Shown here: piece by piece, positions 22,881-52,157 of the stretch | Numbering within the stretch: position 1 is the stretch's first letter | Layout: each line of letters opens with the position of its first letter | NCBI RefSeq assembly: GCF_964194025.1 | Contig: NC_134472.1 | Span: 36,642,001-36,706,000, forward strand | DNA: 64,000 bases | Reading direction: 5' to 3' | DNA from: Convolutriloba macropyga | Taxonomy: Eukaryota | Notes under the pieces: generated by a model | What the model was told of the DNA's origin: nothing | Databases searched by the model: none | Seen by the model: the letters and a program-made list of their open reading frames with translations, nothing else | Position numbers and translations under genes: made by a program

Positions 22881-23450
22881 TTAGGCATTTTCAATCCGTT
22901 CTTTTTTCGTGCGTATTTTATGGTATCCAGAGGAATACCATGTTAAGTAATCTCTGCTCCACAGTTCATCTCTCCTTCCAAATCGAAATGTATTTTTCAG
23001 ATCAGACGAGCAACGCAATTGTCCTGGCATTTTACAAACACAATCAAACTGACTCTGATCCGTTCCTATTAGAGCCCGATTTTTGCTATAATTTTTTATT
23101 GAATTACGCGAGGTCCCAAAAAGGTTTTTAAGATGCGTCCATATCTCACTTGAACTCTTGCCAAACAAGTCTATCAGCATTTCATGATTATTCTTGAGGA
23201 ACACTTGCAGGAATGGTGTCGGCGTCATATCTTCATACGCCATAAATTGAATTCCTGGGTTACGATGTTGCAGTTGTGGAAGACGGTATTTAACAAAACG
23301 TTTTGCACCCTCTGTTTCTTCAGTAGTTCCCTGCTTGAGGTAATTAAATGCCATGATTTCAACACCTTTATGAAGAAAAATGTCACCTTTGTCCAGGTAC
23401 TTCAGCGTGCCAATAATTGGCGAGGGTCCAATCCATTTTTTGCCAGCCAT
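22881..23450 (-). CDS. MRPS25: Mitochondrial ribosomal protein S25 (mS25)
   Basis: GPSPIIGTLKYL..EGAKRFVKYRLPQLQHRNPGIQF..MTPTPFLQVFL..CVCKMPGQLRC matches the mS25 pattern (GRFPIRRTLQYL..EGARKFVFFNIPQIQYKNP..MTPSPFLRFYL..CICEVEGQVPC). Acceptor TTTTCAG just upstream of the ATG suggests a short 5' UTR intron. Confidence 0.93.
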   Translation of the reverse strand: MAGKKWIGPSPIIGTLKYLDKGDIFLHKGVEIMAFNYLKQGTTEETEGAKRFVKYRLPQLQHRNPGIQFMAYEDMTPTPFLQVFLKNNHEMLIDLFGKSSSEIWTHLKNLFGTSRNSIKNYSKNRALIGTDQSQFDCVCKMPGQLRCSSDLKNTFRFGRRDELWSRDYLTWYSSGYHKIRTKKERIENA

Positions 23451-23619
23451 GATCTGAAAATCAAAGCGATCTGACAGAAATCGCTATGGTCGAAAACAGG
23501 TTAAGGTGCTTTAAAAACAAAATGAGAAATTACCGGAGCAAATAAGCTCGGGGGACTAAACATTTTTTGCCAAAAAATTGGGACTAAAAATTGAATGATA
23601 AGAAAATGGAAATTTATGA

Positions 23620-24599: not shown

Positions 24600-26150
24600 T
24601 CAAGATTAGAAGAAATATAAAGCATTTAGCACAACAGCCTCCTTTCCTCCAAAAAAAGTTCCTATTGAAGCTACTACTGCAGGGCGCCGGCGCATGGAGC
24701 GCGCGCCACGGAGGCAGAGTATGGAGCTACGCAAAAAAGATTTTGTCCTTATGTACATGATCACGTCGGAATATTAATCTTCTTTCTTATCGCTGATCCT
24801 GCAAGCCAATCTCTGTATGGCTCTTGATGCTGACGGAAAGGCTCCTCCTGTACACGAAAAGATTAAGGGACAGAAAGTGGCTTTCTCGACTTCGATTATC
24901 CTTTGCTCATATTTCAGCCTCTTGATGGATAATTGTAGGAATCTGGTATGCTTCTTGGGCAACTCGCATACGGATTTAACACTTTGACATCAAAGAACGT
25001 TCTGCTGAAACGTGAATCGAAGAAAACATTAGCTTTAATGTCTAGTCGAGCGTCGTCATCAATAGTGGTAGTTATATTTGCGAAGGTTTCTCCTTGCAAA
25101 GTCTAAAGACAGGCCTCTACTTCGACATCATCGCAGACCTCATTGAGCAGGTTGGCAAAAGAGTCACGGATTTCATGGTGTCTTATGTCCGTAAATCCAC
25201 CTTTTGGATAATGAAGAGCATGTGCTACATTAAGGTTTTCTCCACATGCGCATCTTGATGGCAATTTTACGGGATTCCATCCATATCTAAGAGCAATTCC
25301 ATCGCTAAACTCTCCCTTGGTTAAATCGAAATGATATCTTTCGATGGAAGTGCGTTTAGCCACCATGATGCTCATTTCTTTTATAGCCCATTTTAGAGAA
25401 CACGCCTCTTTATCATTGATGAGATCTTTGATTGCCAACTTTTTGGCTCGAGCTTGTTCCTGTTTTTCTTTTCTGATTCTCTGAAGGATTTTTTCCTGAT
25501 GAAACTCTTGCGTCAGCGTTATCATTCTGTAACGGCTCACAAATCCGAATAGATCTTTCATATTCGTTCGCCCTGTCTTTAGGAAGAAGAATGCTTAGTC
25601 CACCCTCTTTAAGCGGGAGAGAAAACCTTCCAGCATCTGTCATTGTAAGAGGGATGATTCAACATTGAAAGTATAAAATTTTTATCAATTATTTTTGTGG
25701 CATCCCTCAGCAGACTGTCCGAGTGGAGTAGTCCTAGCTGATGGGACACCTTACTATGTTTGGCGAGCTTCTCTAGCATGTTGGAGTAGTTCACTGACTT
25801 TTCTTTCAGAAAACCGTTGCAGCTTTTATCAGAACCAATAACCGAACCCAGAACTCGATGACCTTCAATAACATCAACATCTAATCCCGAAAGAACTTTG
25901 TTCGCCTTCTGAACAAACTCAAGTTTTGTAATGAGATGACATTTGTTCATATTATAACCGAATGCACCGCCATGTTCGTAGAGCTTATCTAGCACGATTC
26001 GCAGTGATTCAAGGCTACCGGCCACATTACCGTCATCTGCGCACCATTTATGAGTCAAATTTTGATCTTCGAGCTTGTCAATGAGAGGTAGTGTAGCCAC
26101 TCCGTACATTATCATGGCTATTGGATCGCCTTGTGTAATAGAATACACAA
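24600..26150 (-). mobile_element. 5'-truncated, decayed non-LTR retrotransposon with restriction-like endonuclease (CRE-like clade)
   Basis: RT motifs TQGDPIAM, WCADDG, HRVLGSVIG, LPLKEGGL. Zinc motif CACG..HAL..GG...RHHEIRD. RLE motifs ARLDI..FFDVKV..KRLKY..FCPLIFSCTGG. Confidence 0.88.
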
Positions 26151-26799
26151 TTATGCAGATGCTGTGATTTGAACCCTACTGAAAAAAGCAGCAGCTACGC
26201 GATTTTAAGTTGTGCAAAAGATTTGTGGGTGACAAGATGTCTCGAGTTTCCGGCGATCCTCGAAAAACACCTTGAATATGCAAACTCACTACATCAATTT
26301 ACACAAATACCTGCCATTAGTATCGAAAACCAACAGACATAACCCTACACTTTTGTAGCTTTCGTTGCTTTTTCCACTTAGACATAAGAAACGGATAGTC
26401 TTCTAAGGTTCGATTCGTAAAATTTCATTGAAACCAGTAATGGGACCAGCACCTTTGTAACAAGTCACTCGTTCATACACCAAAAATCAAAACACAGACT
26501 CGGAAGTCTGAGATTTTTGGTTATAAAAATGTTCAATTACCTTGCTGAAGAAAATCTTTTGCCAAAATCGGTAGATAAAACTGAAGTTTTTTCAATTCGC
26601 ACTAATCTTAGAACACCAATTGGATAATAAAGATATGTTTTATTAGGTACTGCACGTTTATGTAGATTCTCTGGGCACCTCCTGAAGATTCATTCGACTC
26701 GTATGGTGTCCTAGTTGGTGAATTGAATTAGTGCTTCATAATAATTGTTTGTATCTTCTGTTTTAATAATTGTTCGTATCTTCTGAATGCAATGCGATT

Positions 26800-28688: not shown

Positions 28689-29120
28689 TATAGTAGCCGC
28701 CCGCGCGCAATACTCTATTTCTTTGGCTAATTGAGCGTGGTACTTGGTTAAAATGCAAAGTTAGAAGTTAAATTGTTAGGTAGATTTTGGTGAAGAAAAA
28801 TTGCTTTAATAAACTAAGATTTAATAGAGTGGTTAGCTCTGATGGTAAGATTGGTGTTCAATGAATGAATATAATCCTCATTTTGTTTGGTACCCAATAT
28901 CCGTTCTATCTTCGTGGTAAATTACCAAGTCAACAAAGATATGTCAGTTTTGTTGATTTCGCTCGAAGCCCTAGCTTTGTCTAATCACAGGTCTATTTTC
29001 TTTTCTGACACCTATCAACCTTGTGTCAGTCATAAATCAGGTAATAAATCAAGTTTTAAACTAAATTTTTAAACTTGCAACCCAGGGTGTTTAGTACATC
29101 TTCTCTATATAAGTGTGACA
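28689..29120 (-). repeat. LTR copy (432 bp) of the Gypsy element
   Basis: Near-identical direct repeat of 41492-41923; begins TGTCAC on the minus strand. Confidence 0.85.
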
Positions 29121-29558
29121 CTCAGAATTCAAAAACAGTGCAAAACACATTGTATGATGTTCAAAGAGCGTTTCCCAAATTTGTTGAAAGTGCTTCAAAC
29201 CAGGCAAACAATCCTTTTCAGGAAGGGATCCTTCTCCTCCTTCTCTAAATTCTCATCGTTTTGATAGCTGTTGTAATTCTATTTTGAAAAACCAAACTAT
29301 TTATTATGTCAAGATTCGGTCTCTAAATTAGTTTTTGACGAAATTCAATAAAATGTCTAAAGAACCTCCAAATATACTATTATTTGTCTGGTTGGAGGTC
29401 TCGCAGAGACCTTGGTGGAGGACAAATTAAAAACAATTCGTTTCAAAGTCGATAACTACATATTTTCAACCGTTGTCACGTTAGCAAACATCACAGCACA
29501 GGTATATATGTGCATGATTCGATTAAAGCTGATGTAGTTGACATTGAGTTTGAAAACA
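29121..29558 (+). repeat. Duplicate of LINE ORF2 (APE) start also present at 41924-42361
   Basis: Collinear near-identity; encodes GGLAET..GIYVHDSI. Confidence 0.85.
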
Positions 29559-29764
29559 ATGTAAAGCTCCCATTCTCGTCCGCATACTTTTTAAATGATT
29601 TCATATAAATTTTTAAACCTGACGATGAACGCAATGTTCGAAAACGTTCGTTTTAGTTAATCAATTTAAGTTTTAATTGACAATTACTTCTCTGCATCCT
29701 AAATCTTTAACCTTGAAACCCAAGGTTTTTAGTACATCTTTTTTATATACGTGTCACACGCACA

Positions 29765-29779
29765 CTGCCCCCCACTTAA
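29765..29779 (-). promoter_or_regulatory. Polypurine tract of the Gypsy element, adjoining a ~60-bp 3' LTR remnant (29706-29764)
   Basis: TTAAGTGGGGGGCAG followed by TGTGCGTGTGACACGTATATA..GATGTACTAAAAACCTTGGGTTTCAAGG, matching the LTR start. Confidence 0.8.
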
Positions 29780-29895: not shown

Positions 29896-31000
29896 TAGTT
29901 TTGGTTGTTCATAACTTTTCCTGCCTCGTCAAGTCCAAATATGTTTTACGCCTCCCGTGCCGCATCATTTGTCAGAATTTGATATGCCCAGTTGATTGTC
30001 TTGAAGATTTCTTCGTCTTCACCAGAGATCAGGGTGCGTTTCAACAGGCTCATTTTGTGGTAGTGTTTCCTGATCTGATCTTTTGAATCAGAAATTTTTA
30101 CCAACAAAATCTCGTATAGCGTTTTAGGCCGGCTCATAATGTTTTGGTTCCGAATCTCGGATAAACATTTCTCCGTGGCTTTTGTTTTGCCTTTTTCGTT
30201 TCTAAGAGCACTCTTTTGTCGATCAATGAGAGAATTTTTTTTCGGCATTCGTTGGCCAAATACTGATTGTAGTGTTCCAGCTGCTCAAGCTCTGACCTCA
30301 ATTGGTCATTCATTTTCTCCATATTTTCGATGGCTTTGCCCTTCTTAGCAGCTTTGACTTTCAAATCGGCCAAGTTGGCTTCAATACCTCAATGGATTGC
30401 TCCTGTTCAGCATTTTTGGCTGCTGTTGCCCTTAAGTTATCTCGTAACGCCTCAAACTCGGCACTCTATTTGCCCAAAACTACTTTTGTTGCCTCTTTGG
30501 TCTTGTTGTAACAGTTATCCAGTTCCTGTCAAAGCTCGACGAGGTCTTTTTGAAGTGACGAGTTAGTACTCTTCAACTTCTCTAATTGCAAGGACTGGTT
30601 CTGCAGTTCCACTTCAGTCTTCAGAGCACGCGACCGAATACTGGCTTGTGCCAGATATTCTAGCGTAGATATTTTCCGAGTCCGCGACAGACAAGATTCT
30701 ACTCGATACCCTCAGGGGCAAATCTCGGAAATAACTTTCCACAATTCTGGCATGTACACATAATCGCCAATCACTGGAATCTTATTACCCGCTATATTCA
30801 ATAAAAACCCTTTTTGCTTCTAAATTTTCTCGATATTTTCAATCTTGAGCTCGAGACTTTTCTTTTTTTTTCGTTTCTTTTTTTGGTCTTTAGCTCGAGA
30901 CGTTCCCGTTTTTTTGGTCTTGAAATCAAGACATTTTTTTTGGTCACGTTATGGGCTCAAGATTCCGCAACAGTTGTCGCCAAAACGCTCCAATAAAATC
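29896..31000 (-). pseudogene. Retroelement-borne coiled-coil protein with C-terminal DnaJ J-domain (disrupted)
   Basis: TLYEILLV..SDSKDQIRKHYHKMSLL-[HPD in shifted frame, CACCCTGAT at 30036-30028]-GEDEEIFKTINWAYQILTNDAAREA*NIFGLDEA. Upstream are coiled-coil fragments and a KKKRKKRK basic run. Confidence 0.8.
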
Positions 31001-31099
31001 TAATCCTAAATAGATGAACAACAGGGAAAATTTTTCACAAATTGAAAAATGAAGTAGACTGTTAAGACTGACACAGAAATGTCCTTCGCTTTTACCCAA

Positions 31100-34000
31100 A
31101 TTTATAAGGTTTCGGTTCATAAATTCCGAAAAATTGTTATTTCTTTTGTTAGAAAAAGTTGTTGTTGGAACTGATAAAGCAGTAAGACAAAATTTTCATT
31201 ACTATATTTTCTATGCGAATCTCAGAATGCTTCCCGACTGATAATTCCTTTACTATAATGGCGAATTGTTCGAGTAATTTGATTCTGTTTTACGTCTGAT
31301 GTGGAGAAAAGGCTACGATGCAGGTTTTAATCACTTCTATTTAAGTTAAATTCATCGACCACTGATATATCACCGATTGAATTTCTTCAGCGTTTCTCCA
31401 TATTGTTGAAAACTGCCGTCTCCTAATTTGACAACATTCAGGTACAGCGGGTTGAATGCAGCGGTTGCATAATTATGATGTATAATTATTGTTATAGGGT
31501 CCATACATCTACTAAAAGAAAAATTCTGACCCTTTACTATCACAGGAACTTCTTCTGTGCAAAAAGGAAGTTTAGTTATTGTTGCTACCATCTTTGAACA
31601 TTTATGAACATATAACACAGATCCTGCTCTTTCGACGTGAGTTCCTTCCTCGAAAAACGTTACTGACGGGCTAACAATGTTTTCTGATATTTCAATCATT
31701 GTTTATATTCTTAGTCGGTGAATCTCGCATTAGAGCGTTCTATTTTTCATTAGAAAATTCTCTCTTTTTGAGAAGTTCGAAATTAAAGGTGTCAACAACG
31801 CTCGAAAGAAACATTTCCATGGATATTTTAAGATTACCAGTTTTCAGTTCTGAACTTTCCTCGGAATAAAAAACACCTGGAACTCCGGTTGTTTTCACCT
31901 GCCTTTCTAATGCAAAATCTTCATAATGGTTTTTTAATAAAATGTTTTCGCTGATAAAAGTGGTCTTGTTGTTATTAAAATTTTTTGCAGGATCTTCCCT
32001 ATTAATGTGTCTGATCTTTTGACATGTTTGCTCACCTTGATTTTCAAAAAAATTATTTTCTTCGGTACTATTAATCATTTCTTCGGTACTTTTTGTTTTT
32101 CTGCTATTTTCCTGAGGCTTTTTTTATGGTTTTGGAATTTTTGTTTTTCCTGTTTTTTCTCCAGTGTACTCTGTAGGTTTTGATGAAGTTGCATCTCCTC
32201 CCTTGGCAACATTTTTTGCCTTCTCTTGCCCTTCAGAGATTTCTTGCTCGGATTCTTTAGCTTCATTCTCAGACGTGTCATTTGTAACATTTAGTGACTC
32301 ATTAGCACCCTCAGCTTCGGATTGACTTTCTGTGTTTAGCGTGCTTTCATTGTCTGTTGATGATTCTATTTCAATTATATCACCTTTGTCTGCGCTGATC
32401 AAATCTGTATTCTTCTGCTCCTTAACGGTCGCTTTTCTTTTCGCCTGAGGCTTAGGCGTGAATGGCTTTTTTCTCGTGTTTTAAATTTTTTCAGTCGGTC
32501 ATAATGGACCTTAATAGCTTTCCTGGTCTTTTTATCTTCTACCTTGAAATTCATATCGTTCATAACTTCAACTATTATGTATGGTCCTCTATAGAAGGAA
32601 GTATTTTTTCTTATTTTTCCTTTTTTAACCGTTGGGTTGAAAACTAACACTATTTCGCCAACTTTTTAGCTCCGTCCATGCTTACTGCAATCATAGTAGG
32701 TCTTCTGGCGTTCTTGTTTGACATCCATATATTCTCGTATCAACTGATGCGTTTCCTGTAGTTTCTGTTTCATTGTGAAAACATAGTCACTTGGTGTTGC
32801 ATATATTGCGGTCTGTGGTGTGCTGTAGGTGCAGTCTATAGGTAGCGACAGTGGAAAACCCAATAGCACTTGCCCTTGGCTGTATTTTTGTTACACTATG
32901 GATTGTTGATCGATAGGCCATCATCGCTAAAGGTAGAAATTTCGACCGCTCATGTTAATATTGGCCTATTTATTTATGGGGACATTCTTTTATTGACCGA
33001 TTTGTTCTTTCAATCATCGCATTTACTTGGGGGTGTTAGAACCCCGTTGATGTCCTCTAAATTTCTAGTTCACTGCAAAGACTACGAATTAATTTTGACA
33101 CAAATTTTGACCCTTGGTCACTTTGTAGGCTGACGAGACAGCCGAATCTCACCATCCAGTGTTCAACAAACGCTAATTGCACGGTTTTTGCTTCTTGATT
33201 GGGTAAAGCTACGGCTTTGTACAACTTACTGAATTCATCACCGATAGGCAAAAAGTACTTGTTTCCCTGAGACTCGGGAAGTCGACCCATGATATCAAGA
33301 GATACTTGCCAAGAAATATATAACACAGATCTTGCTCTTTCGACGTGAGTTCCTTCCTCGAAGAACGTTACTGACGGGCTAACAATGTTTTTTGAAATTT
33401 CAATCATTGTTTGAATTCTTAGTCGGTGAATTTCGCATTGGAGCATACTAATTTTCATTAAAAACTATCTCTCTTTTTTTGAGATGTTCGAAATTAAAGG
33501 TGTCAATAACGCTTGAAAAAACATTTCCATGGATATTTTAAGATTACCAGTTTTCAGTTTTGAACTTTTCTCGGAATAAAAAACACCTGGAATATTGGTT
33601 TTCACCTGCTGTCCACACAAACTAATTGCTTTTTCCTCTAGAATTTCTAATGCAAAATCTTCATATTTGTTTTTGTAAAAAAAATTTCCGCTGATAAAGG
33701 TGGTCTTGTTGTTACTAAATTTTTTTGCAGGATCTTCCCTATTAATTTGTTTGATCTTTTGACATGTTTACTCACCTTGATTTTCAAAAAATTATTTTAC
33801 TAAGTCCTTTTAAAAATATGTGACTTTGAGGAAAACAGTTTCAAGAAACCTAGGGGATCCTTAAATTCTAATAGGTTTCTTTGTAGCAGCTTCCCTCAAG
33901 TTTCTCCGATGTAAAGTTTTCCTTTATTACCACATTTCCAATAACTTTTCTCCTGTAGGTGAAACCCACTGTACAGGTTTTGCATGCAAAGCGCCTTCAT

Positions 34001-35037
34001 GCCCTTTTTTGCCATGAATCTACGACTATGCTCTTCGACATAAGTGGTTTCGAAGGCTTGATGTAAAATTGTTTCAGTTACCGACCTGTTGACTTTGAAG
34101 GTCCTATCACCAAAACCTGGTATGTTATAGCAAAGTTTTTGTTCTGCCAAATATTCCTAAAAGCTCCCTATTTAAAGAGTGTATTGATTTTAGTAGTCTC
34201 GAAATTTCTGTGAGAAAAAGGACATCGTCATATATGTTGCTTTTTAGTACCAACACTGTGTAAACCGCTTCATAGATGCAAAATTTTAGTTTTCTTTCAG
34301 GTTGAACCTCAGCATATATCAAACTACCTTCTTCTTTTGTTTTCGATACTCGAGTTTTGTTATCACAATTTGTACTGCAATCAAGAGAATAGATCTTTGT
34401 TGATATAATTTTTTGTCAAAATCATAACCGTTTAACTTGATACAAGGTCATGGAGAAGCAAAAATGGCTACCAATGCCACATACAAACATAGTGATACTC
34501 CATCACACGATGCTCCAGACGAACTCGCCTTTCTTTTCGATTCCAATACTTCTTTCTGGATTTTCCTGGAACAAAAACACCTTCAGTTTCCTGACTGCAG
34601 AAGTACTCTTTATCTTGCTCAGTAATGTAATTCTTTAATTTCTCAGGCACCGATTTTAATCGGCTGTTAGAACTTGTAGCCATTTTTGGTGCCTTGGGAT
34701 CACTATTAATCTTTTCTTCGGTACTTTTTGTTTTTCTGCTAGTTTCCTGAGGCTTTTTTTCTGGTTTTGGAATTTTTGTTTTTCCTGTTTTTTCTCCAGT
34801 GTACTCCGTAGATTTTGATGAAGTTGCACTTCCTCCCTCGGCAACATTTTTTTCCTTCTCTTGCCCTTCAGAGGTTTCTTGCTCTGATTCTTTAGCTTCA
34901 TTCTCAGACGTGTCATTTGTAACATTTAGTGACTCTTTAGCATCCTCAGCTTCGGATTGATTTTCTGTGTCTAGCTTGCTTTCACTGTCTGTTGATGATT
35001 CTATTTCAATTATATCACCATTGTCTGAGCTATTCAA
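31100..35037 (-). pseudogene. Envelope-like glycoprotein (chuvirus-G-like) remnants, split over tandem duplicated units
   Basis: Hydrophobic LCLYVALVAIFA then LNGYD(F)D..SILLIAVQ(N)CD (~34490-34360). LQCEIHRLRIQT..RAGSVLYVHKC..FCTEEVPV..MDPIT..NPLY (31740-31370). Confidence 0.65.
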
Positions 35038-38000
35038 ATCGGTTTTTTTCCTTGAAATTCAAATCGTTCATAACTTCAACTATTATATATGGTCCTCTTT
35101 AGAAAGAAGTAATTTTTCTTATTTCTCCTATTTTAAGCGTTGGGTTGAAAACTAACACTTCTTCGCCAAGTTTATAGCTCGGTCCATGCTTACTGCAATC
35201 ATAATAGGTCTTCTGGCGTTCCTGTTTGACATCCATATATTCTCGTATCAACTGATGCGTTTCCTGTAGTTTATGTTTCATTGTGAAAACATAGTCACTT
35301 GGTGTTGCATATATTGCGGTCTGTGGTGTGCTGTAGGTGCAGTCTATAGAAAGCAACAGTGGAAAACACAATACCACTTGCCCTTGGCTGTATTTTTGTT
35401 ACACTATGGATTGTTGATCGATAGGCCATCATCGCTAAAGGTAGAAATTTCGACCGCTCATGTTAATATTGGCCTATTTATTTATGGGGACATTCTTTTA
35501 TTGACCGATTTGTTCTTTCAATCATCGCATTTACTTGGGGGTGTTAGAACCCCGTTGATGTCCTCTAAATTTCTAGTTCACTGCAAAGACTACGAATTAA
35601 TTTTGACACAAATTTTGACCCTTGGTCACTTTGTAGGCTGACGAGACAGCCGAATCTCACCATCCAGTGTTCAACAAACGCTAATTGCACGGTTTTTGCT
35701 TCTTGATTGGGTAAAGCTACGGCTTTGTACAACTTACTGAATTCATCACCGATAGGCAAAAAGTACTTGTTTCCCTGAGACTCGGGAAGTCGACCCATGA
35801 TATCAAGAGATACTTGCCAAGAAACATATATTACAGATCTTGCTCTTTCGACGTGAGTTCCTTCCTCGAAGAACGTTAATGACGGGCTAACAATGTTTTT
35901 TGAAATTTCAATCATTGTTTGAATTCTTAGTCGGTGAATTTCGCATTGGAGCATACTAATTTTCATTAAAAACTATCTCTCTTTTTGAGATGTTCGAAAT
36001 TAAAGGTGTCAATAACGCTTGAAAAAACATTTCCATGGATATTTTAAGATTACCAGTTTTCAGTTTTGAACTTTTCTCGGAATAAAAAACACTTGGAATA
36101 TTGGTTTTCACCTGCTGTCCACACAAACTAATTGCTTTTTCCTCTAGAATTTCTAATGCAAAATCTTCATATTTGTTTTTGTAAAAAAAATTTCCGCTGA
36201 TAAAGGTGGTCTTGTTGTTACTAAAATTTTTTGCAGGATCTTCCCTATTAATGTGTCTGATCTTTTTACATGTTTGCTCACCTTGATTTTCAAAAAAAAT
36301 TATTTTCTTCGGTACTATTAATCATTTCTTCGGTACTTTTTGTTTTTCTGCTAGTTTCCTGAGGCTTTTTTTATGGTTTTGGAATTTTTGTTTTTCCTGT
36401 TTTTTCTCCAGTGTACTCTGTAGGTTTTGATGAAGTTGCATCTCCTCCCTTGGCAACATTTTTTGCCTTCTCTTGCCCTTCAGAGATTTCTTGCTCGGAT
36501 TCTTTAGCTTCATTCTCAGACGTGTCATTTGTAACATTTAGTGACTCATTAGCACCCTCAGCTTCGGATTGACTTTCTGTGTTTAGCGTGCTTTCATTGT
36601 CTGTTGATGATTCTATTTCAATTATATCACCTTTGTCTGCGCTGATCAAATCTGTATTCTTCTGCTCCTTAACGGTCGCTTTTCTTTTCGCCTGAGGCTT
36701 AGGCGTGAATGGCTTTTTTCTCGTGTTTTAAATTTTTTCAGTCGGTCATAATGGACCTTAATAGCTTTCCTCGTCTTTTTATCTTCTACCTTGAAATTCA
36801 TATCGTTCATAACTTCAACTATTATGTATGGTCCTTTATAGAAGGAAGTATTTTTTCTTATTTTTCCTTTTTTAACCGTTGGGTTGAAAACTAACACTAT
36901 TTCGCCAACTTTTTAGCTCCGTCCATGCTTACTGCAATCATAATAGGTCGTCTGGCGTTCTTGTTTGACATCCATATATTCTCGTATCAACTGATGCGTT
37001 TCCTGTAGTTTCTGTTTCATTGTGGAAACATAGTCACTTGGTGTTGCATATATTGCGGTCTGTGGTGTGCTATAGGAGCAGTCTATAGGTAGCGACAGTG
37101 GAAAACCCATTACCACGTACGCTGGGCTGAATTTTTTTTACACTATGGATTGATGATCGATAGGCCGTCATCGCTAAAGGTAGAAATTTTTACCACTCAT
37201 GTTGGTATTGGCCAATGTATTTATGGGGACATTCTTTTATTGACCGATTTGTTCTTTCAATCATCGCGTTTCCTTGTGGGTGGTAGGACCTTGTTGATGT
37301 CTTCTAAAATCCTAGTTCACTGCAAAGACTACGAATTAATTTTGACACAAATTTTGACCCTTGGTCACTGTGTAGGCTGACGGGACAGCAGAATCTCACC
37401 ATCCAGTGTTCAACAAACACTCTTGACACGGTTTTTGCCTCTTGATTGGGTAAAGCTACGGCTTCGTACCACTTACTGAATTGATCACCGATAAGCAAAA
37501 AGTACTTGTTTCCCTGAGACTAGGGAAGTGGACCCATGATATCAAGAGATATTTGCCAAAATGAATGATAAGGTTTCAATTTTGTGAGTGAATGCCGATG
37601 TTTCCGCTTAGTGCTTTTCCTTTTAGGCACACGTAACAGCTTTCTATCCAGTTTCTTACATCCCATCTCATGCACAGCCAATAAAACCGTTCACAAGCCT
37701 TTTGGTGTGTTTTCTTAATCCCAAATTGACCTGCGCTAGGAGAGTCATGCAACAGCTCAAGCACGTTGGACACTCTCTCCCATGGTACAAGCATTTGGTA
37801 AACAGTCTTAAAGTTTGGTTCTATTTTTGTATTTACGATACAAAATCCCGTCGATGAGACAAAGATTTGTATACTTAAGCCAGTATTTCCAAAAATCCTT
37901 TGAGGCTCCATTTTCCAATTGCCGTGGTTCCGTTCTTTTTTGGTTTAGTACCCAGGAGTATACTTCTTTGAGTACTTTGTCATTTTGCTGGGAATCTCGC

Positions 38001-41000
38001 AGATTTACTCACTGCAGTTTGTCTAACTGCCAACCTCGACTACCATAATCAGTTTTGTCTAGCTCTGCGTCAATGGCAATAGCGTTAACAAAAGCCGTTT
38101 GTTCATCGTCTTCTGTGTTTATGCGCGACAGACAGTCAGCGTGTGGGATTTTTTTGCCTGCTCTATGCTTGATGTCAATGATAAATTGCCCAAGTTTCTC
38201 TATCCATCTTGCAACTATAGCGTTTCGTTCCTTAAAACTACAGATACAGACAAGGGCTCGGTGGTTCTTTATAATTAAAAAGTGCTGACCAAGAAAATAG
38301 TTTTAAAAAGTTGAGTAAAATGAACGATTTCAAATAATTCCCTCTTAGTGGCTGAATAATTTCGCTGACTTTTACTCAGAGTCTCGCTAGCAGATGCAAT
38401 AACTCTATCCTCCGTTCCTAGCTTTTGGGTAAGAATTGCTCCAATTCCTGTCAACGAAGCATCCGTAGTTAATGTACACGGATCCCTATCGTTTGGATAT
38501 CCTAAAACTGGGGCGTCCAAAAGCTTTTTTATAACTCGGTTACCGCATTTTCACACTCTGTACTCCATTCAAGTTTATTTGGCTTATTCAGCAAACTGTA
38601 AAGAGGTTCTGCTGCTTTTCCGAAACCTGGAATAAATTCCGATAATAGCCCACAAGGCCTAGAAGGGCCCTGGCGTCCTTCAGGGATGATGGTTCTTTCA
38701 TTCTTTCTACCGCTCTTATTTTTTCTGGGTCGACCTCAACAAGCGGATATATAGTGCCCCAAGAAGCTGAAACGTTTTTGGAAAAAATTGAATTTTGATC
38801 CCTTAATCTTTTATCCATTCTCCGTTAAACGTTGGAAAACCACTTCTAATCGTTTCAGATGTTCGTCGAAATTTCTTCCGAAAACGATAACGTCTTCTAG
38901 ATACACTACAGCCATTTCGGAAAAGAAGCCAGTAAAAATGAACTCCATTAGTTTTTGAAAAGCACCCGGAGCAGACGCTAGTCCCATAGGGAGTCTTTTC
39001 CACTTATACAGGCCTAGAGGCGTTATGAAATCTGCTAAGATCTGACTCTCTTCCTCGATCGCCATCTGAAAGTATCCCGACAAGAGATCAATTTCCGAGA
39101 AGTTTATGTGTCCCTCCAGTGAATCATTAACCTCATTTATTCGTGGTAAAAGCCAGCATGTTTTTTCTATTTGTTTGTTCAGACCACGATAGTCAACAAC
39201 CAAGCGATAGGTTCCATCTCTTTTGATGTGCCAGTAATGAAGGTGCTGCCCAGTCGGAATGTGTTGTTTCGACTATGTCGTCTCGTTCCAATTCTTTAAC
39301 AATTTTTTTTCATGGCTTTTCTTTTCTCAAAGCTCATGCTGCCGTATGTACGTCTGAAAAGCAAAACATCTTTTTTTAATTTTGTTTCATGGTAAATTTG
39401 GTCGCAAAATTCCAAATCATTTGAGCTTCGCGAAAAAATTAATTCATATTTTGTGCAAAGTGAACTCACTTGTGTCTTTTCCTCGCAAGACAAGCTCATT
39501 GAACTTGAGTTCACATGCTTCTTCTCTATGAATCAAATTCATCTCTATGTTTTGTATCTTTGTCAGGGTTATTTTGTTGTATTCTTGAAATTTTTTCAAT
39601 GTTTTCCGCACAGGCGATTCTCGCATTTTTGTAAATTTTCTTTAGTTCTAATGTAAAAATCAGAACTCGAACCCATAAGACATCAACAACCATGTCATTC
39701 AGCGATCTCGCTACTAATAACTGTGATTTGTCTTCAAACTCTTTCATGGGTTCGACAATAATTTCTGTTCGCTGTGTTATGTTACCTTTATCATCGATAA
39801 TTTTGCATTTAGTGAAACCTTTGCAGCGACGAGGTGGTTCGTGATCCTCAGCAGCAATTAAAAACAGATTATTATTTTTTCGGTGTGATGGGACAATTGT
39901 AATGTTTTTCCAATTGTCCCGCAAAAGAGTTCGTTCTTTCTGAGGTTTAAATTACAGTCAAAATTATTTAAGAATTCCATGCCCAATAAACAAGGTCGTT
40001 ATCTACCAATTTTGGTCACTAGAAACTCTACTGTCATCTCAGATGTAATTTTTTGAAGTTTGACCTGAATAGCTGTTGACCATTTTACAAGAATTTTTCT
40101 ATTGTTGGCAGCTATTATATTTTTATTGCACACTCTGATCTGGCTCGGTTCTCCAAGTTGCTGGTAGAGTGTGTCGCTTAAAAGTTTAACAATACTATCA
40201 ATTAAGGCCATTATCAGTTTGTCTTTTATCATTATTTTGGCAAACAAGGCCTCCAATGGCTGTTTCTGCCACGCAAAGTTTTTACGCAGCTACCTGAAAA
40301 TGCTCGTTTAAATGCAATTCTGTTTGAAATGATTTAAACTCCCACATTCAAAACATTTCTTGCATTCCTTAGATGCATGGTTTCGCTGACCGCAACGGCA
40401 ACACTTTTCTCTCTCAAAACTAACCGCTGTCTTTGACTTCTCGGCACCGATTTCGGCTTCTGTTCTCGCCTCCTGGTGTTGGCAATCGCGCTCTACTGTC
40501 GCCAACGGTTCTTTTATTAACAGCTCTGCTTCTGTTATAGTTATTATAGTTTCTATTTTTTTTCTCCGGCTTCTCTTGAACAACGCTCACTTCCGCGCAG
40601 AAACTCTTTTGGGCTCGCTCCTTGGGATGGAAACTCTTGATTACCTTACCTGTTAGATTGAGTAACTGTTAACTTTTCATCTAATTGACATCTGTTAACT
40701 TTTCACTCGGCTGTTGGACTCTCCTAACTATCCTCCCCCGGAAAACTACAAAATTCTCATTATACTGCTGTCTGAAGGCTTTTACGGTCTCACCATATCT
40801 CCTCCTAATGTCCTCCTGAAAGTGTACGATAGAAATCAGAAGCCGAATTTTGTAGCTTTAACGAAAAATAATTGATTTCCGTTCATCAATTTCGGTTTCA
40901 GCGCCGTTTTTTGTTTCTTTTTTGCCACTTCTGAAGTTGTGACAAAGATTAAAAAGTGTAACATAACTTTCAAAATTATTCGAACCCGTAAAACAGCGTT

Positions 41001-41471
41001 TTTGAGGAGTACCGCGCCATCAGTGTTTTTCTTAAAGCTGCTATTTTTCAAATTATTTTTATAATTATGTTCGAAACCCGAACTACTTATTGACACTCTA
41101 AATCAGCGGCTTTTGAATCTCATTGACACTGAGTTTTTTTCTTGAAAAAATTCAAAAATTTCGAGGTTCAATGGTGTATTTTAAGTCAAATTAGCTCGAA
41201 TTCATATTCACTTGATTTTGAACGCTGTTTTATTATCAAAAAAACATGTACCAACCGATTTACGATATTCGAAATTTTATGGAGTACTCACTTGAATGTT
41301 CAAAGATGGCAGTGTTCCTTGTCAAATCCCGACACCAGTTCAAAATTCCTCTTTCGGGTCATGATGTTAAGACGTCAGACTCGTGTCGAAAGTTGATTTT
41401 CAAACAAAAAAAAGATTTCTTTTAGAAATCAGTACAACGCTCAATATTAAATGATGGTGGTTTTCTATTTA

Positions 41472-41490
41472 CCTTTAATCTCTGTCGCCA
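41472..41490 (-). promoter_or_regulatory. Primer-binding site of the Gypsy element
   Basis: TGGCGACAGAGATTAAAGG lies 1 nt after the LTR end and is absent beside the other LTR copy. Confidence 0.75.
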
Positions 41491-41491
41491 C

Positions 41492-41923
41492 TATAGTAGC
41501 CGCCCGCGTGCAGTACTCTATGTCTTTGGCTAATTGAGATTGGTACTTGGTTAAAATGCAAAGTTAGAAGTTAAATTGTTAGGTAGATTATGGTTAAAAA
41601 ATTTGGTTTAAATAAACTAAGATTTAATAGAGTGGTTAGCTCTGACGGTAAGATTGGTGTTCAATGAATGAATATAATCCTCATTTAGTTTGGTACCCAA
41701 TATCCGTTCTATCTTCGTGGTAAATTACCAAGTCAACAAAGATATGTCAGTTTTGTTGATTTCACTCGAAGCCATAGCTTTGTCTAATCACAGGTCTATT
41801 TTCTTTTCTGACACCTATCAACCTTGTGTCAGCCATAAATCAGGTAATAAATCAAGTTTTAAACTAAATTTTTAACCTTGAAACCCAAGGTTTTTAGTAC
41901 ATCTTCTCTATATACGTGTGACA
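41492..41923 (-). repeat. 5' LTR (432 bp) of the Gypsy element
   Basis: Direct repeat of 28689-29120, adjacent to the PBS. Confidence 0.87.
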
Positions 41924-44830
41924 CTCAGAATTCAAAAACAGTGCAAAACAAATTGTATGATGTTCAAAGAGCGTTTCCAAAATTTGTTGAAAGTGCTTCA
42001 AACCAGGCAAACAATACTTTTCAGTAAGGGATCCTTCTCCTTCTTCTCTAAATTCTCATCGCCCTGATAGCTGTTGTAATTCTATTTTGACAAATAAAAC
42101 TATTTTCTCTGTCAACATTCGGTCTTTAAATTATTTTTTTGACAAAATTCAATAAAATGTCACCCGAACCTTCAAATATACTATTATTTGTCTGGTTGGA
42201 GGTCTCGCAGAGACCTGGGTGGAGGACAAATTGAAAACAATTCGTTTCAAAGTCGATAACTTCATATTTTCAACCGTTGTCACGTTAGCAAACATCAGAG
42301 CGCTGGTATATATGTGCATGACTCTATTAAAGTTGATGTAAATGACATTGAGTTTGAAAACATTTTACTGCTGAAAATTACGATTTTTTGAAAATATTGT
42401 TTTTTTCGGGCTGTGTTCAATTTGTCATCCAACTCTAAAGGGAAGTTCATTGAGGACGTTTATAGGTTTCTGGAAGAATTCTCTACAAATTTTGAATGCT
42501 TATACTGAGTGGGTGATATGAACATCGATCTACTCAAGCAAGACAGCCTAACTGAAAAGTACACGAATCGTCTCATAAATTACGCTGTGGAACAAATCAT
42601 TGCTGAAGCAACTCGGATCGGAGAGAGATCATCTCTTCTGATTGATCATATTATTTGTAAAAGAATTACGTTTTTGAATAGCGAAGTTATTCCAAAACAA
42701 TAACCGATCACTACGCTACATCCGTCATCACGCTCTATGAAGTTCGCAGCAATCAACGAAGCTTGCGAAAAAAGGAATTAGTTTTCTCCACAATGAAGCT
42801 GACCATAGCAAAATGTTGCATGATCTCGAAAGACAGTTTTATAGTGTAGAGTATTACGTTCTTGTGTAGAGAATTATGTCCTTTCAAAATTGTTCTTGTG
42901 TCTCTCATCCAAAGTTATACAACAAAAAAGACAATAAATTCTCGTATGAAAAAAAGTACCCTGTTTTGATAAGGAAGTTGACAAGGAAGAAATAGTAAAA
43001 TCAAAAACTCAAGAAATTAATTTAAAAATTCCTTGCGGAACTCAAAATGGCCAGGAAAGTGGTCAACAGCTTAGCCGCCAATAAAAAAAACAATATTATA
43101 ACAATATGGTCATCGGTACAAATTAAACAAAAGGCAATATGTTCAGAGACATCAACGAATTAACCGGTAACCGGGAAGAAAACAAACAAATCTCACTTCT
43201 AATCGATGGTGGCGATACTGTTGATGATGGTGGAACCGTAGCAGATTTGTTCAATGAGTATTTAACTATCATTGCTGGCGATCAACTAGAACAATTTGAT
43301 CATACTTGGATGAAATTTAGTTTTGCACCAGCCCTAAATTCAATATTTCTTTTTCCAGTGGGTAACAGAGAGGCAGAGAAATTCTTTACCGCACCTAATC
43401 CTAATAAATCAACTAGACTCAATGGTCTCTCTGTGAAAAAACTGAAATCTATGCTTCCGGTGATCTCACAACACGTAACTATGACTTATAAATAGTTCAA
43501 TTTCCCGTTGTGTTCTTCCAGATCGTCTCAAAAAAGGCACGCATAACTCCGTTTTTCAAAATAAACTCAATGTTTGAAGTGAGCTATTATGGACCAGTAT
43601 CAATCTTGCCTGCCGTTAGCAAAGTCATCGAACGAGCTATGTATACAAGGTTGTAGAGCTTTATGAACTTATGATTAAATGAAAATTAATTGAATTTTTG
43701 AATTATATATATTATAGTATTGGTAATCGCAGAGATATTTGAGAAACTACGATTTAGCACGTCAACCAAACAGTTTTGTGTTTTTCTTGACATTAGTAAT
43801 GCATTCGATACCGTTATTCATGGTTTGAATTTTGAGAAACTGGAAAAATATGGTGTCAGAGGAGTCCTTTTGAGTTTCGCAGTTTTTTCTTGAACCGGCA
43901 ACAGACTGTGTTCATCAATGGAGCCCTATCAGATTTCAAAGTAATCAGTAGCGGTGTGCCACAAGGGTCAATACTATACTCGGCCCTTTCTTTTTCAATA
44001 CTTATACAATCGACTTTTTAGTAGTTGCAAATATTTGAATATGTATATGTTAGCGGATGATACAACACGTATGTACTTTGCAAAAACTTTGGATGACAGA
44101 TGCATTGGTTCTGACATTGTTTGCCTGCAAAATTGGATCATTTGTAATCAACTGTCAACCGCTGACAGATATTAGGCTTCAAAATGAAAGGTTGAAAAAC
44201 GCAGGTTCTGTAAAGTACCTGGGCATTCACTTAGACTAAAACCTTTCTTTGGACGTTCATGTTGATAGGAGTCTAAAACGCTCGTCAATGCAAGTGTTTG
44301 TGGTTGCAGGAATCAGGACATTCGTGAGTAGAAACGTTCTCATTTTTTATTAACGTTCCTTTATCGAGCCGATAGTTCGACATGGTCTTTTAACCTATGA
44401 ATGTACAACATCTTCTAAGTTACGTTGAATCTATAAGGTGCAAAGAAAACTGCTTAAGTTGATATTTTCAGAAAACAGAGAGAAAATGCATCTTGCGTTT
44501 TCTCAGAATCTACTATCCTAAGTGTATACTATTTATACATTCTGGAAGTAGAGAAATTTGTTTTGAAATCGGCCAATTCGAAACAGCCTACTTGGTGTCT
44601 GATTAGCCTTTATCAGCGTGACGTGATGGATTGCCTTACCTCGAGGAGCGTCCCATCAGGCCTCTTCAGGAAACCATGCCTGAATAAATCCTCGGATAAA
44701 AACTCATTGGCCTGGAGAGGATGCTTTCTGTTAAAATACTTGATTAGTTATGGCTTTATTTTTGATCTCTTGTTTGAGGGGACGAAACATTATTAAGACA
44801 TTCAATAGGTCATCCCATGGTTTTGTTAAT
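41924..44830 (+). mobile_element. Decayed CR1/L2-group LINE ORF2 (APE+RT)
   Basis: SVNIRSL, GLAETW, VGDMNIDLL, LIDHII, TDHY; PVSILP..KVIERAM, FLDISNAFDTV.H, GVPQGSI, LADDT, KYLGIHLD. Confidence 0.9.
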
Positions 44831-48386: not shown

Positions 48387-48627
48387 TTATCACTACTCAC
48401 CTCCTCTAGGACAAATCAGACAAATGTTTGCCGTGAATTAAGAAGCTTGAGAAACAGTGTATTCCTACACCAGACAGCAGATTTCGCAATTAAAGCATGA
48501 ATTTGTCTATGATTACCTTTGGTTGAATCCAAAATTACTTTAAGTCTCTAAACGCATATATTATCTCAAAATTTAGAAACTGCCGCAGCATAGTTTTCAT
48601 GAACAGTTTTCAGAAACTACCAACAAC

Positions 48628-49789
48628 CTAGCAAGAGCAGTCTTTGTTTTTGGAGTGCTCTTCCTTATTGCCGTCATTGTGGTCATTTTTATTTGCCTCC
48701 TTGTCATCTTCAGAGGCATCGTCGTCATTGTCATCGTTTTCGCCGTCATCATCGTTGTTGTCGGAGGCATCGTCGTCATCTTCAGAGGCATCGTCGTCAT
48801 CCTCATCGTCATCACCATCATCGTCAGAGGCATCGTCGTCATCGCCATCGTCATCTCGATGATCGCCAGAGGCATCGTCGTCATCGTCAGAGGCATCGTC
48901 GTCATCCTCATCGTCATCGCCATCATCGTCAGAGGCATCGTCGTCATCGTCATCTCCATGATCATCAGAGGCATCGTCGTCATCGCCATTGTTGCCATCG
49001 TCAGCGTCATGGTCATCCTCATCGTCATCGCCGTCATCGTCATAGGCATCGCCGCCATTGCCATCGTCATCTCTATGATCGTCGGAGGCATCGTCCTCAA
49101 CGTCATCATTTTCGTCCTCGCCCTCATCGTCAGAGGCATCGTCGTCATCTTCATTCGCATCGTCATCACTACCATCGTTAGAGGTATCGTCGTCATCTTC
49201 ATCGTCATCACCGTCATCGTCAGAGGCATCGTCGTCATTGTCATCATCGTCATCGTCGCCGTCGTCAGAGGCATCGACGCCATTGCCATTATCATCAGCG
49301 TTATCTCCGTCAGAGTCATCGTCCTCATCGTTATCATCATTCTCAACATCATCGTTGTCGTCGTCATCATCATCGTCAACATTGTCACCGCCGTCGACGT
49401 TGTCATCATCATTTGTGCCCTCCTTGTCATTGTCGGGCTCGCTCAATGATCCACAGTATTTGTTAAACTGACAAACAATTTTGTTCATCCTGTTATGACA
49501 TGGGACGTCATTCAGGGCTGTTTCAGAGCCCGATCCTTTGGGCTTTGTTTCCACACACCATTCGTTATTGTTGTCGTGGTTGTTGGGTTCGTCTTCCCAA
49601 AACAAACCATCAGGTATGTCAGCGCAGGTTGAAATACTGTGATACTGATTTTCCTCTTTGTCTGGACATCTAAACTCGGCTGAATTTTCTGCATATCCAA
49701 CGAAGTATTGTTCGCCCTTAAGTACGGTAAAATGATTCTCTAGCATATCTATTTCTTCCCTACTTTTCGGCTCGTAGAGGAGGCCATTC
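48628..49789 (-). CDS. Terminal exon of a C-type lectin domain protein with a ~250-aa aspartate-rich tail
   Basis: Acceptor TTTCATTTTAG at 49790. CTLD motifs L..PKSREE, YFVG, W...EPNN..EWCVE..LNDVPC..IVCQ. Then DDDDASDDDGDDDE-type repeats, ending KDCSC*. Upstream exons not resolved. Confidence 0.85.
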
Positions 49790-52157
49790 CTAAAATGAAA
49801 CATTTAAATTTCAAGACCTTTTACAATCATCCTCTTTTTTCAAGAAATGAAACGTTCGATTTCAATGATGAACAAAAATTTACAAGTTTGATGAGAATAC
49901 GGAATTAAATTTGCTTAAAATAATATTTAATTTTCGTAAACACATCATATTGAGTAAAAACTCCTCAAGGGTATTGATGAACAGGTAGTAAAATTAATAA
50001 TCTGCGTGCTCTGCGCTCCCGTTTTCATCAATCAGTTCACACAATTCTTATGCTCTTCCCCGATCATGGGTGAGGCGGAAAAGTTGCCATTGATTTAAAG
50101 GGAGATTTATAAAACTATGTTTTAAGCGATTGGTTCAACTTCTAGTCAGAAGATGATTCGCACAAAAGCAACTTTGAGCAGGTGTGCGCTCCAGTGTGTC
50201 TGATCAGAAGCCATCAAATTTGTCTGTCCACTAACCGTTTTTTTGCATTCTATTCCTCCTCCAAAAAAACTATTCACAGAAAATTTTACTATCAAAATTC
50301 TAACGGGTTTTTGAAACTGGCTCTGATTTATGGTTCTGTTTCTGATTTGAAAATGGCTCTTCATGGTCATATTCTCCTAATTTTAATTCATTTGAGGAAA
50401 GCAAAATGTACTCCATATATATAATCCCTTTTTCAAAGTAAAAGCTACTTTGTTCGATCAGACTACATCCAGATTCCACATCAGATTCTGGATTTTCCTA
50501 GAACCACGGCACTTTCTCCTAATATCATTGAAAGATTTTGCGTGGTTTTGCTAGTAATCTGTGCTTTTTTCGAGGAGCCGGAAAACACTAAAAATCAGTC
50601 ACACAACTACAGAAACAAAATTCTTTGTATTGCAATGAGGTAAAAACTGTTGCTAGCCCATTAGAAACTTTCAGAAGAAAACTTTCGACAAAATCGAAAA
50701 CTTTCGACTGCTATAAAAAAGTTGCCTTGAGCGAAAACTTCTAGAACCTCTGGAATTATAATTCAAACCGTTCAGCGCGCGTTTTTTTTTCAAAAATTAC
50801 ATCTACTAAAACGTCCACAAAAAACTGCAAGTTTCTGACATCTATGGTGATATTCCCGCTCAAATGCGCATTATCTCTAGCAGGATCATGAAAAAGGGCA
50901 ATTACTTGACAAAAAGTTTGATAACTTAATTTTTTGTACCGCAAAAACACAATATCTAGTGGCGTCTTTGTGACCTACGAAACTGATTTGAGTTCGTTTA
51001 AGCATGTTCTCAAACATTTCAAATGCTTATATTATTTCTATGCAGAAATATGTTCAAAACTAATACGTCGAAATCAGTTTTTTTTGTACAAGATAAAACT
51101 TACGCTGAAACAAGCAAGAACTAATTTTTACAATAGAAAGAGTTCAATTGTAAATATAATTTTGTAATTTTAGTATGAATGGTTTGATTCTTAAGGATTA
51201 GTGAAAAAATAATCGAAATGCAACCAACCAATAATCTTTATTCGTGTGTATGAAAAATTGGGCCAAAATTCGATTAGGCAAACGGAATGTTTATTGCTAT
51301 TATTCAAAAATCCTGAAATAATTCTTTTTGAAAATTAAATTGGGCAAGAACCAAGTAAAATTTTTAATAGAGGTGGTTCATTATCCACTTGACACTATAA
51401 AGTACTCAAATGTCCCTTATATGCGAAAAGTTTGTCAAACTGCAAATATTTTCATATTTTCAATGTTTTGCATCTCTTCTACTCCACTCAGGGGCTTCGT
51501 GGTCAGTGGTTTGGATTTTTAAAATAGTGCAGAAAAAAGTTTAAAGTTACATTTCAATTATAATAATGTAATCAATTAAGAACAACCGTGTTGAAGAAAA
51601 ATGGGAATGAACTTTGGTGGAGTTAGAGTTTGACACTTGTCAATTTTTTAGCTTTTTGTAGGCTATTGTTTATGAGTACAATGGAATCCTTGAAACGACT
51701 CATTTCAATAAACAACACTGAATTATATATCAGAATATTCAAATTTATGCGTGAATCTATTATTGAACTTCTGATTATCGTTTGATTTGACCCATTAAGC
51801 AGTTCGTTCCTATAAATAAAAATAGGGAACGGATATTCCCAATTTTTTGTCTATTTTCATGCTGACATTGCAATAACTCTGTTAGAGTTCTTTTGAAATG
51901 TATTTTTTTCCTTTCGCTATTACATTAAAAGGCAACTTTTTCCACTTTTTGATGCTCTTCAAGATCAAAGATCTTTTAGTCTGCTTAGTGTGCTCTTGCG
52001 TACTCATTATCATCATCTGTTTTGTCCGTTTTATTTTTTGTAGTTTTAGGCAGTTTCCACTATTTTTAAAGTTGTCTGATGTACCACAATGAATGAAGTC
52101 TGTGTGAAAAGTCATTTATAAAGTATATGTACTGCCGAAGCTAGCACACTTGTACTC

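Follow-up and report, generated by a model that had tools for sequence, protein, structure and literature searches.

Layout of the element in the window

The stretch analysed here, referred to as the window, comprises 64,000 nucleotides of Convolutriloba macropyga (NCBI RefSeq assembly GCF_964194025.1, contig NC_134472.1, positions 36,642,001 to 36,706,000 of the forward strand). A long terminal repeat (LTR) retrotransposon lies at approximately 41929 to 28689 on its minus strand and encloses an envelope-like (env) gene, which an earlier, sequence-only reading had placed at 31100..35037. The element is a dead, internally duplicated copy of a Ty3/Gypsy family, designated family A, with the gene order gag-pol-env-ORF4 (ORF, open reading frame). 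On the combined evidence it is quite probable that this dead Ty3/Gypsy copy carries a class III env inherited together with pol, and an ORF4 whose product, a coiled-coil J protein, recruits Hsp70. The parts of the element are given below in coordinates that here and throughout are positions within the 64-kb window; the element and all its parts lie on the minus strand.

41492..41929, minus strand: 5' LTR, about 430 bp, with the family termini TG...TA and GAAT just before it
41478..41490, minus strand: primer-binding site whose 13 nt pair with the 3' terminus of host tRNA-Ser(GCT) plus CCA
40314..41020, minus strand: gag remnant with zinc knuckles, broken by stops and frameshifts and lacking an internal segment (tblastn, unbroken copy as query; zf-CCHC weak)
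36338..40259, minus strand: pol remnant with protease, reverse transcriptase, RNase H, integrase (H2C2, core, GPY/F-type C-terminus) and acidic tail
35823..36297, minus strand: copy of the middle of env (about codons 253-412), produced by duplication
34547..35820, minus strand: duplicated integrase piece and acidic pol tail
33315..34546, minus strand: broken 5' part of env (codons about 1-412) with signal-like stretch, GYD motif and fusion-domain region
32066..33312, minus strand: second duplicated integrase piece and pol tail, splitting env
30941..32061, minus strand: broken 3' part of env, end deleted (codons about 251-633), with PF24664 core and hydrophobic C-terminal stretch
29898..30813, minus strand: ORF4 remnant with coiled coil and DnaJ domain (HPD codons 30036-30028), stops and frameshifts
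29699..29777, minus strand: polypurine tract with the initial ~65 bp of a truncated 3' LTR
29125..29558, minus strand: 434-bp repeat, 92% alike, of host sequence found upstream of the 5' LTR
28689..29126, minus strand: full 3'-end LTR with GAAT after it (95.6% alike to the 5' LTR)

When compared by tblastn with an unbroken copy, every gene of the window copy contains stops and frameshifts. The integrase-env region is tandemly duplicated, such that integrase and env pieces alternate three times and env is represented by three overlapping pieces (codons 253-412, 1-412 and 251-633). The internal duplicates are 84-99% alike, and because they diverge from one another the duplications can be considered real; the env-to-integrase junction that they create occurs in no other of the 69 family copies examined. 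The LTR pair is 95.6% alike and flanked by GAAT, a 4-bp target-site duplication, while the 434-bp copy of upstream host DNA ahead of the last LTR points to a local duplication. The nearest relatives fetched from the family are 85-89% alike to the window copy.

Most of the motifs on which the sequence-only reading had based its env gene are present on the minus strand, namely LNGYD (34435-34421), LQCEIHRLRIQT (33443-33408, with a second copy at 35951-35916), RAGSVLYVHKC (31630-31598), FCTEEVPV (31564-31541), MDPIT (31504-31490) and NPLY (31453-31442). The basic cluster RKERRVR also exists (34539-34519), but in the pol frame, past the pol end of unbroken copies, and not in the env frame, while SILLIAVQ arises by reading out of frame past a frameshift, where the alternative frame gives IISTKIYSLDCSTNCD, which is common to the unbroken copies. 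Env starts near 34546; 35037-34547 is the acidic pol tail, and 33312-32066, within the 31100..35037 span, is a duplicated integrase piece. The proposed gag-pol-env-J layout was borne out, with a real J-domain ORF at 30813-29898 and unbroken copies organised as gag-pol-env-ORF4.

Copies of family A and their replication signals

The family A element is ~9.8 kb long, with its four genes between the LTRs. A 110-amino acid (aa) env piece used as query yielded at least 150 env matches in the 1.18-Gb genome (the best 150 of 1133 candidates scored), and a 677-codon open frame is found at several of these. Five natural copies measure 9.7-9.9 kb, have 430-bp LTRs that are 98-99.8% alike and encode gag, pol, env and ORF4 products of 343, 1375, 666 and 285 aa, respectively, the last counted from the first ATG; pol overlaps gag in the -1 frame. 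The 69 copies compared here, which represent part of family A only, are the window copy and 68 others, 60 of which were picked among 150 ORF4 matches so as to span 68-99% identity. Two LTRs are present in 36 of the 69 copies, with a median identity of 96% (range 74.5-100%), and an exact 4-bp target duplication flanks 21 of these 36 (one is unreadable). The primer site pairs with host tRNA-Ser(GCT) over 13 bases. Family A has been copied in bursts over a long span. Unbroken frames occur in 14 (gag), one (pol), five (env) and 17 (ORF4) of the 69 copies.

The pol stop and the env start of family A overlap as TAATG (copy L038, near 6170), an arrangement that may allow termination-reinitiation. The spacer between env and ORF4 (window 30940-30830; L038:8100-8330) is a variable A-rich repeat array of 188-750 bp with a TTGTCTTGAG..CAAGAC core. 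Elsewhere in the genome, 46 of 50 sequences matching the 3' end of tRNA-Ser(GCT) are clustered at G000:C10:2701272-2801477.

ORF4 and its J domain

The ORF4 product is predicted to form one helix of ~170 residues (59-228, with a predicted local distance difference test score, pLDDT, mostly above 90) and, C-terminal to it, a J domain. J domains act through their HPD motif on Hsp70, and HPD is kept in 56 of 67 ORF4 copies. The natural ORF4 matches PF00226 at 60.8 bits (cut-off 27.8), while the remnant in the window matches it at E 3.9e-8 on a fragment. In a PDB sequence search the J domain is nearest to Sis1 (E 1e-10) and to class A/B human J proteins, and SV40-type T antigen entries are weak matches (E 0.005-0.008); the best ESM Atlas lead scores 0.76. 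Among the 64 public relatives of ORF4, 63 are pieces of family A (45-98% identical) and one is a cellular DnaJ, so that the gene looks lineage-specific. Pfam revealed no domain in ORF4 for binding DNA or RNA, and neither a signal nor a membrane stretch is present. An SH3-like barrel suspected by eye at the N-terminus is unsupported, the model being helical there with pLDDT under 60. By profile and HPD motif ORF4 encodes a J-domain protein, likely an Hsp70 recruiter. No retrotransposon-encoded J protein was found in the literature searched, a body from which most subscription papers and Repbase reports were out of reach.

A splice donor in the leader is conserved in 38 of 45 copies, and in 63 of 72 alignments the opening of the ORF4 frame coincides with a TTTAG, which is in phase 0 in 48 of the 72; both suggest expression from a spliced RNA. 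The 12 donor-like sites found within genes show no better conservation than the sequence around them and were set aside. Shared variants ahead of the first ATG are also synonymous, suggesting that the ORF4 protein starts earlier than this codon.

Five further env-bearing Gypsy families of the genome (B-F) were compared with family A. In families B, C, D and E, too, env is followed before the 3' LTR by an ORF of 274-611 aa, the C-terminal part of which is heptad-like; none of these fourth ORFs has a J domain, no fourth ORF was seen behind the env of family F, and no kinship is detectable between the ORF4 of family A and the fourth ORFs of B or D. In family B, env and ORF4 both start directly after TTTAG.

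It is conceivable, if somewhat unlikely, that the J domain instead acts on host defence or chromatin by bringing Hsp70 to a silencing or RNA-export complex. Coiled-coil fourth ORFs lacking a J domain in four other families imply a base role that needs no Hsp70, which counts for such an explanation, and the J-protein SILENZIO is described, in the part of PMC8616336 available, as working with Hsp70 in plant transposon silencing. Against it stand the lack of any nucleic acid-binding domain among the Pfam matches of ORF4 and the lack of detectable mutual kinship among the fourth ORFs.

Predicted fold of the env product

The 666-aa env product of unbroken copies matches PF24664 (Monjiviricetes_fusion) over residues 296-605 at 40.3 bits (cut-off 27), while the 110-aa piece in the window (31370-31702) reaches E 2e-5 and 23.2 bits, below that cut-off. 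A monomer model was built with AlphaFold from 48 sequences; its confident parts are residues ~65-300 and the helices at the C-terminus. When this model was compared with viral models using Foldseek, glycoproteins of chu-like, xinmo-, qin-related and rhabdo-like viruses came first (best E 3.4e-14; 12-16% identity), the top 13 rows all being RNA-virus-type glycoproteins or unnamed. The best 40 Foldseek rows against the PDB are all thogotovirus GP, baculovirus GP64 or herpes gB, with no F protein among them. The VIA structure search, which does not use Foldseek, places herpes gB chains in five of its top six positions and the rabies G fusion domain in the remaining one (Z 6.0-7.4, weak if taken alone), and the top three ESM Atlas clusters all belong to PF24664 (0.95-0.96). 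By sequence, env has no match in the PDB at E 10, and searches with element queries found no relative among viral contigs or JGI metagenome contigs. The nearest public env relatives are 27-30% identical, and two of the 8000 candidates scored are near-length.

Other features of the protein include a signal-like hydrophobic stretch at residues 11-39 (2.07, judged by hydropathy only), five N-glycosylation sequons and an uncharged 15-residue stretch at residues 589-603 (best 15-residue hydropathy 2.39), while no furin-type R-x-[RK]-R site occurs. The chuvirus-type glycoprotein recognised in the sequence-only reading agrees with these results, in that unbroken copies exceed the PF24664 cut-off and Foldseek returns class III fusogens rather than F protein. 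Profile and models support a class III fusogen as the predicted product of the family A env, chuvirus-like (PF24664) and not baculovirus F-like. In the modelled comparisons the structural matches do not single out chuviruses, since xinmo-, qin-related and rhabdo-like proteins rank equally high.

Probable inheritance of env among the Gypsy families of the genome

With a public env relative as query, a second family (B), whose 38 top matches are near-equal in score and include 36 without a stop, and also a third family were found. Family B has undergone a very recent expansion. A genome scan with PF24664 gave 99 matches, and of six further loci opened, four lie behind a Gypsy-type pol and two lack pol. 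Among the six env-bearing Gypsy families (A-F), identity ranges from 27 to 77% for reverse transcriptase (RT) plus RNase H (RH) and from 15 to 61% for env, the RT and env identities correlating at 0.75 (28 of 720 permutations). Eight cysteines are common to env of all six families. The divergence of env thus tracks that of RT, which fits old co-inheritance, and within families A-C these identities indicate plainly that env was inherited with pol. The sequence-only reading had envisaged an independent capture; a rare event of this kind could not be upheld, given the tracking of RT by env across six families and the abundance of the same env type on gypsy elements reported in the available text of PMC13524379. 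Two old captures, one for each of the clades A-C and D-F, are possible on the sequence comparison.

That the A-C env was captured independently from a negative-strand RNA virus, chu-like or related, and separately from the gB-type env that other errantiviruses carry, is unlikely. The top structural matches are RNA-virus glycoproteins, env is only 15-18% identical to the D-F env of the same genome, just two near-length relatives were recovered among the 8000 candidates, and several contributing Ty3/gypsy lineages are seen by Chary and Hayashi in what is accessible of PMC13524379, all of which would be in keeping with such a capture. The eight cysteines and the PF24664 core common with D-F, the parallel env and RT identities and the gypsy elements with such a glycoprotein already reported from many phyla in the same portion of PMC13524379 argue against it, and with viral matches at 12-16% identity no near donor is seen. 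Even if true, such a capture would be one more of a known sort and would predate family A.

Several further elements were observed among these families. A family B copy (L063, G000:C7:30576000-30585990) has identical LTRs, four unbroken frames and a 330-aa fourth ORF. The second clade of Gypsy families (L137-L148) is 27-30% identical to family A in RT-RH and has a PF24664 env of 769-902 aa and fourth ORFs of 274-611 aa. A 7.7-kb unit between 673-bp repeats that are 99.6% alike (L139:6899-7558; L139/L140 env) contains a PAN-domain ORF, a PF24664 env and a coiled-coil ORF, without gag or pol, and is possibly a non-autonomous carrier of env.

Selection on the four genes

Variants were counted column by column in the 69 copies and separated into private variants and those shared by at least three copies, with a fixed transition weight and no tree model. 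For shared variants, omega is 0.32 in gag, 0.35 in pol, 0.44 in env, 0.30 in ORF4 and 0.22 in the J domain, while that of singleton variants is near-neutral (1.2-1.3). The contrast between shared and private variants is significant in all four genes (Fisher p 5e-17 for env, 2e-18 for ORF4 and 3e-7 for the J domain) and non-significant in the acidic pol tail, which served as control (omega 0.79, p 0.23). As judged from these counts, env and ORF4 were under purifying selection.

That env and ORF4 are passengers or decaying relics of a family that moves only inside cells is highly improbable. Env is the least constrained of the genes, has a short anchor and is unbroken in five of the 69 copies, as that explanation would have it, but the selection test largely refutes it: in both genes, shared variants are strongly depleted of amino-acid changes, also in the anchor and tail of env (p 9e-4), just 8 of 263 of them in env and 2 of 110 in ORF4 are stops, and env is covered over 80% of its length in 56 of the 69 copies.

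Affiliation of pol

The unbroken 1375-aa pol product contains, in Pfam order, protease, RVT_1, RT_RNaseH, Integrase_H2C2, rve and Integrase_p58_C domains. Its best PDB match is Ty3 Gag-Pol (E 1e-110), with caulimovirus and retroviral enzymes ranking lower (retroviral RTs at E 1e-35 to 1e-39). The BEL markers Peptidase_A17, DUF1759 and DUF5641 are absent from the gag and pol of family A and are present on all five BEL controls from the same genome. RT separates from BEL at full support (100) both in a quick tree of 64 rows, made up of 55 of 120 listed relatives (the first 25 and every third thereafter) with family and BEL rows, and in a careful tree of 10 rows, the in-genome BEL outgroup carrying a long-branch warning. 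By domain order, best match and trees alike, the pol of family A is of Ty3/Gypsy and not of BEL/Pao type, as the sequence-only reading had held. A BEL/Pao (Anakin-like) element, or a BEL-Gypsy chimera with env from a BEL element of the genome, is hardly credible: chuvirus-like glycoproteins were reportedly first tied to mosquito BEL/Pao elements and BEL elements abound here (at least 150 matches), yet for pol the idea is refuted by the missing BEL domains and the separate RT, while PF24664 occurs in none of the five long BEL ORFs scanned and four of the six further PF24664 loci lie behind a Gypsy-type pol, the other two lacking pol. A galactosyltransferase ORF (PF01762, 451 aa; L070:8206-9558) adjoins one BEL element, of which a near-identical copy (L071) lacks it.

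Proposed working and significance

As its sequence signals show, family A primed its replication on tRNA-Ser(GCT) and integrated with 4-bp target duplications. Gag-Pol would be made by a -1 frameshift, while env and ORF4 would be expressed from subgenomic, probably spliced RNAs, given the signals at the leader and at the frame openings. Through membrane fusion, Env may deliver particles to adjacent cells, probably those of the germ line. In the least certain step, for which the chances fall slightly short of even, ORF4 would form a cytosolic coiled-coil oligomer presenting several J domains and would turn on the Hsp70 ATPase at particles, thereby helping capsid assembly or uncoating.

A number of observations weigh against the reading of family A as a Ty3/Gypsy element with an inherited class III env and an Hsp70-recruiting ORF4. 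None of the 69 copies has all four frames unbroken. The env model is weak (mean pLDDT 59.9, predicted template modelling score 0.43, residues 303-568 mostly under 50), its template modelling scores to its matches are 0.12-0.22 and the VIA Z values are under 8. The C-terminal hydrophobic stretch of env, a candidate for the expected transmembrane anchor, is short, with a best 19-residue mean hydropathy of 1.56, compared to 2.0-2.8 in relatives. Between families A-C and D-F, the env identity of 15-18% is near noise. The modelled J domain is moderately confident, with a Foldseek E of 0.09 to Sis1, and an in-frame ATG occurs in the leader exon of one of 38 copies, the first ATG after the acceptor being mostly out of frame.

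A more far-reaching, tentative and rather doubtful proposal is that the env-bearing Gypsy elements of this host are complex invertebrate retroviruses with a conserved accessory slot between env and the 3' LTR, which in family A would be filled by the first Hsp70 co-chaperone of a retroelement, a coiled-coil J protein driving the assembly or uncoating of infectious particles. While env adds one lineage to a kind now known to be widespread, the selected J-domain gene would, if the reading is true, be a case of a retrotransposon supplying its own adaptor for the Hsp70 of its host, in the way of certain true viruses, and could be used directly to find out at which step the Gypsy life cycle requires chaperones. 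That five of the six env-bearing families in a single genome have a coiled-coil fourth ORF suggests that a class of accessory genes has been overlooked.

Other features of the window

An intron-free host ORF of 200 codons (22881-23483, minus strand), which presumably resembles mitochondrial ribosomal protein S25, and fragments taken to be of a non-LTR-type reverse transcriptase with a YADD-like motif (25103-26175, minus strand) lie outside the element. At 48577-49803 a low-complexity, GAT/GAC-rich tandem array is open in several frames, and its minus-strand translation contains a lectin-like stretch of cysteines and, after it, a tract rich in aspartate.

Comparison with known systems

The Drosophila errantiviruses gypsy, ZAM and Idefix share the gag-pol-env Metaviridae layout with family A, and their spliced env RNA and 4-bp target duplication are similar to what is proposed and observed for it, respectively. 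Their env is of the F type (class I, baculovirus F-like) and has a furin site, and to our knowledge they have no fourth ORF. J domains are carried by polyomavirus T antigens, and host-derived DnaJ inserts by pestiviruses. Virus-encoded J domains and ORF4 of family A have in common that a mobile element encodes its own HPD-bearing J domain; unlike the former, that of family A is closer to cellular class A/B proteins (Sis1), is C-terminal after a long coiled coil and belongs to a retrotransposon. The Monjiviricetes glycoproteins (PF24664) give a profile match above cut-off and the best Foldseek matches to the family A env, but are only 12-16% identical to it, and the latter is flanked by LTRs and preceded by the pol of a retroelement. 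The same glycoprotein family is found in an LTR retrotransposon setting in Anakin and further BEL/Pao elements of mosquitoes, which differ by their BEL/Pao pol. Dezordi et al. 2020 are said to have first tied chuvirus-like glycoproteins to these mosquito elements (Anakin). According to the portion of Dezordi et al. 2023 (PMC10084718) available, there was no clear Gypsy capture of a chuvirus glycoprotein, which the later eLife paper did find.

In that paper, by Chary and Hayashi (eLife, PMC13524379), the available text describes env of the HSV/gB type (HSV, herpes simplex virus) on Ty3/gypsy elements across animal phyla, as abundant as the F type, and 1,512 published errantivirus loci. Chuvirus-like glycoproteins of mosquito BEL/Pao elements served there as baits and led to 114 gypsy elements with homologous genes; an ancient co-divergence of env and pol is argued for, and several Ty3/gypsy lineages are concluded to have contributed. 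As far as these elements are described there, family A resembles the HSV/gB-type errantiviruses in its Ty3/gypsy pol, gag-pol-env order, class III env with signal peptide and conserved cysteines but no conserved furin site, divergence of env with pol, tRNA primer site and many copies, and differs from them as reported by its fourth ORF with coiled coil and J domain. Neither DnaJ nor a coiled coil is mentioned in the main text of PMC13524379, nor DnaJ in seven supplements, while its figure supplements, being images, may show further ORFs; as its pipeline is presented, gag, pol and env only were sought, and fourth ORFs may exist there unreported. Bdelloid Gypsy-type elements (PMC5408684, in which neither DnaJ nor ORF4 is mentioned) have an ORF3 with esterase and exonuclease cargo in place of env, whereas the ORF4 cargo of family A follows env, both being host-like cargo in Gypsy-type elements. 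The env type of family A is therefore already known on gypsy elements, and it is the selected J-domain fourth gene that is the unusual part of this family.

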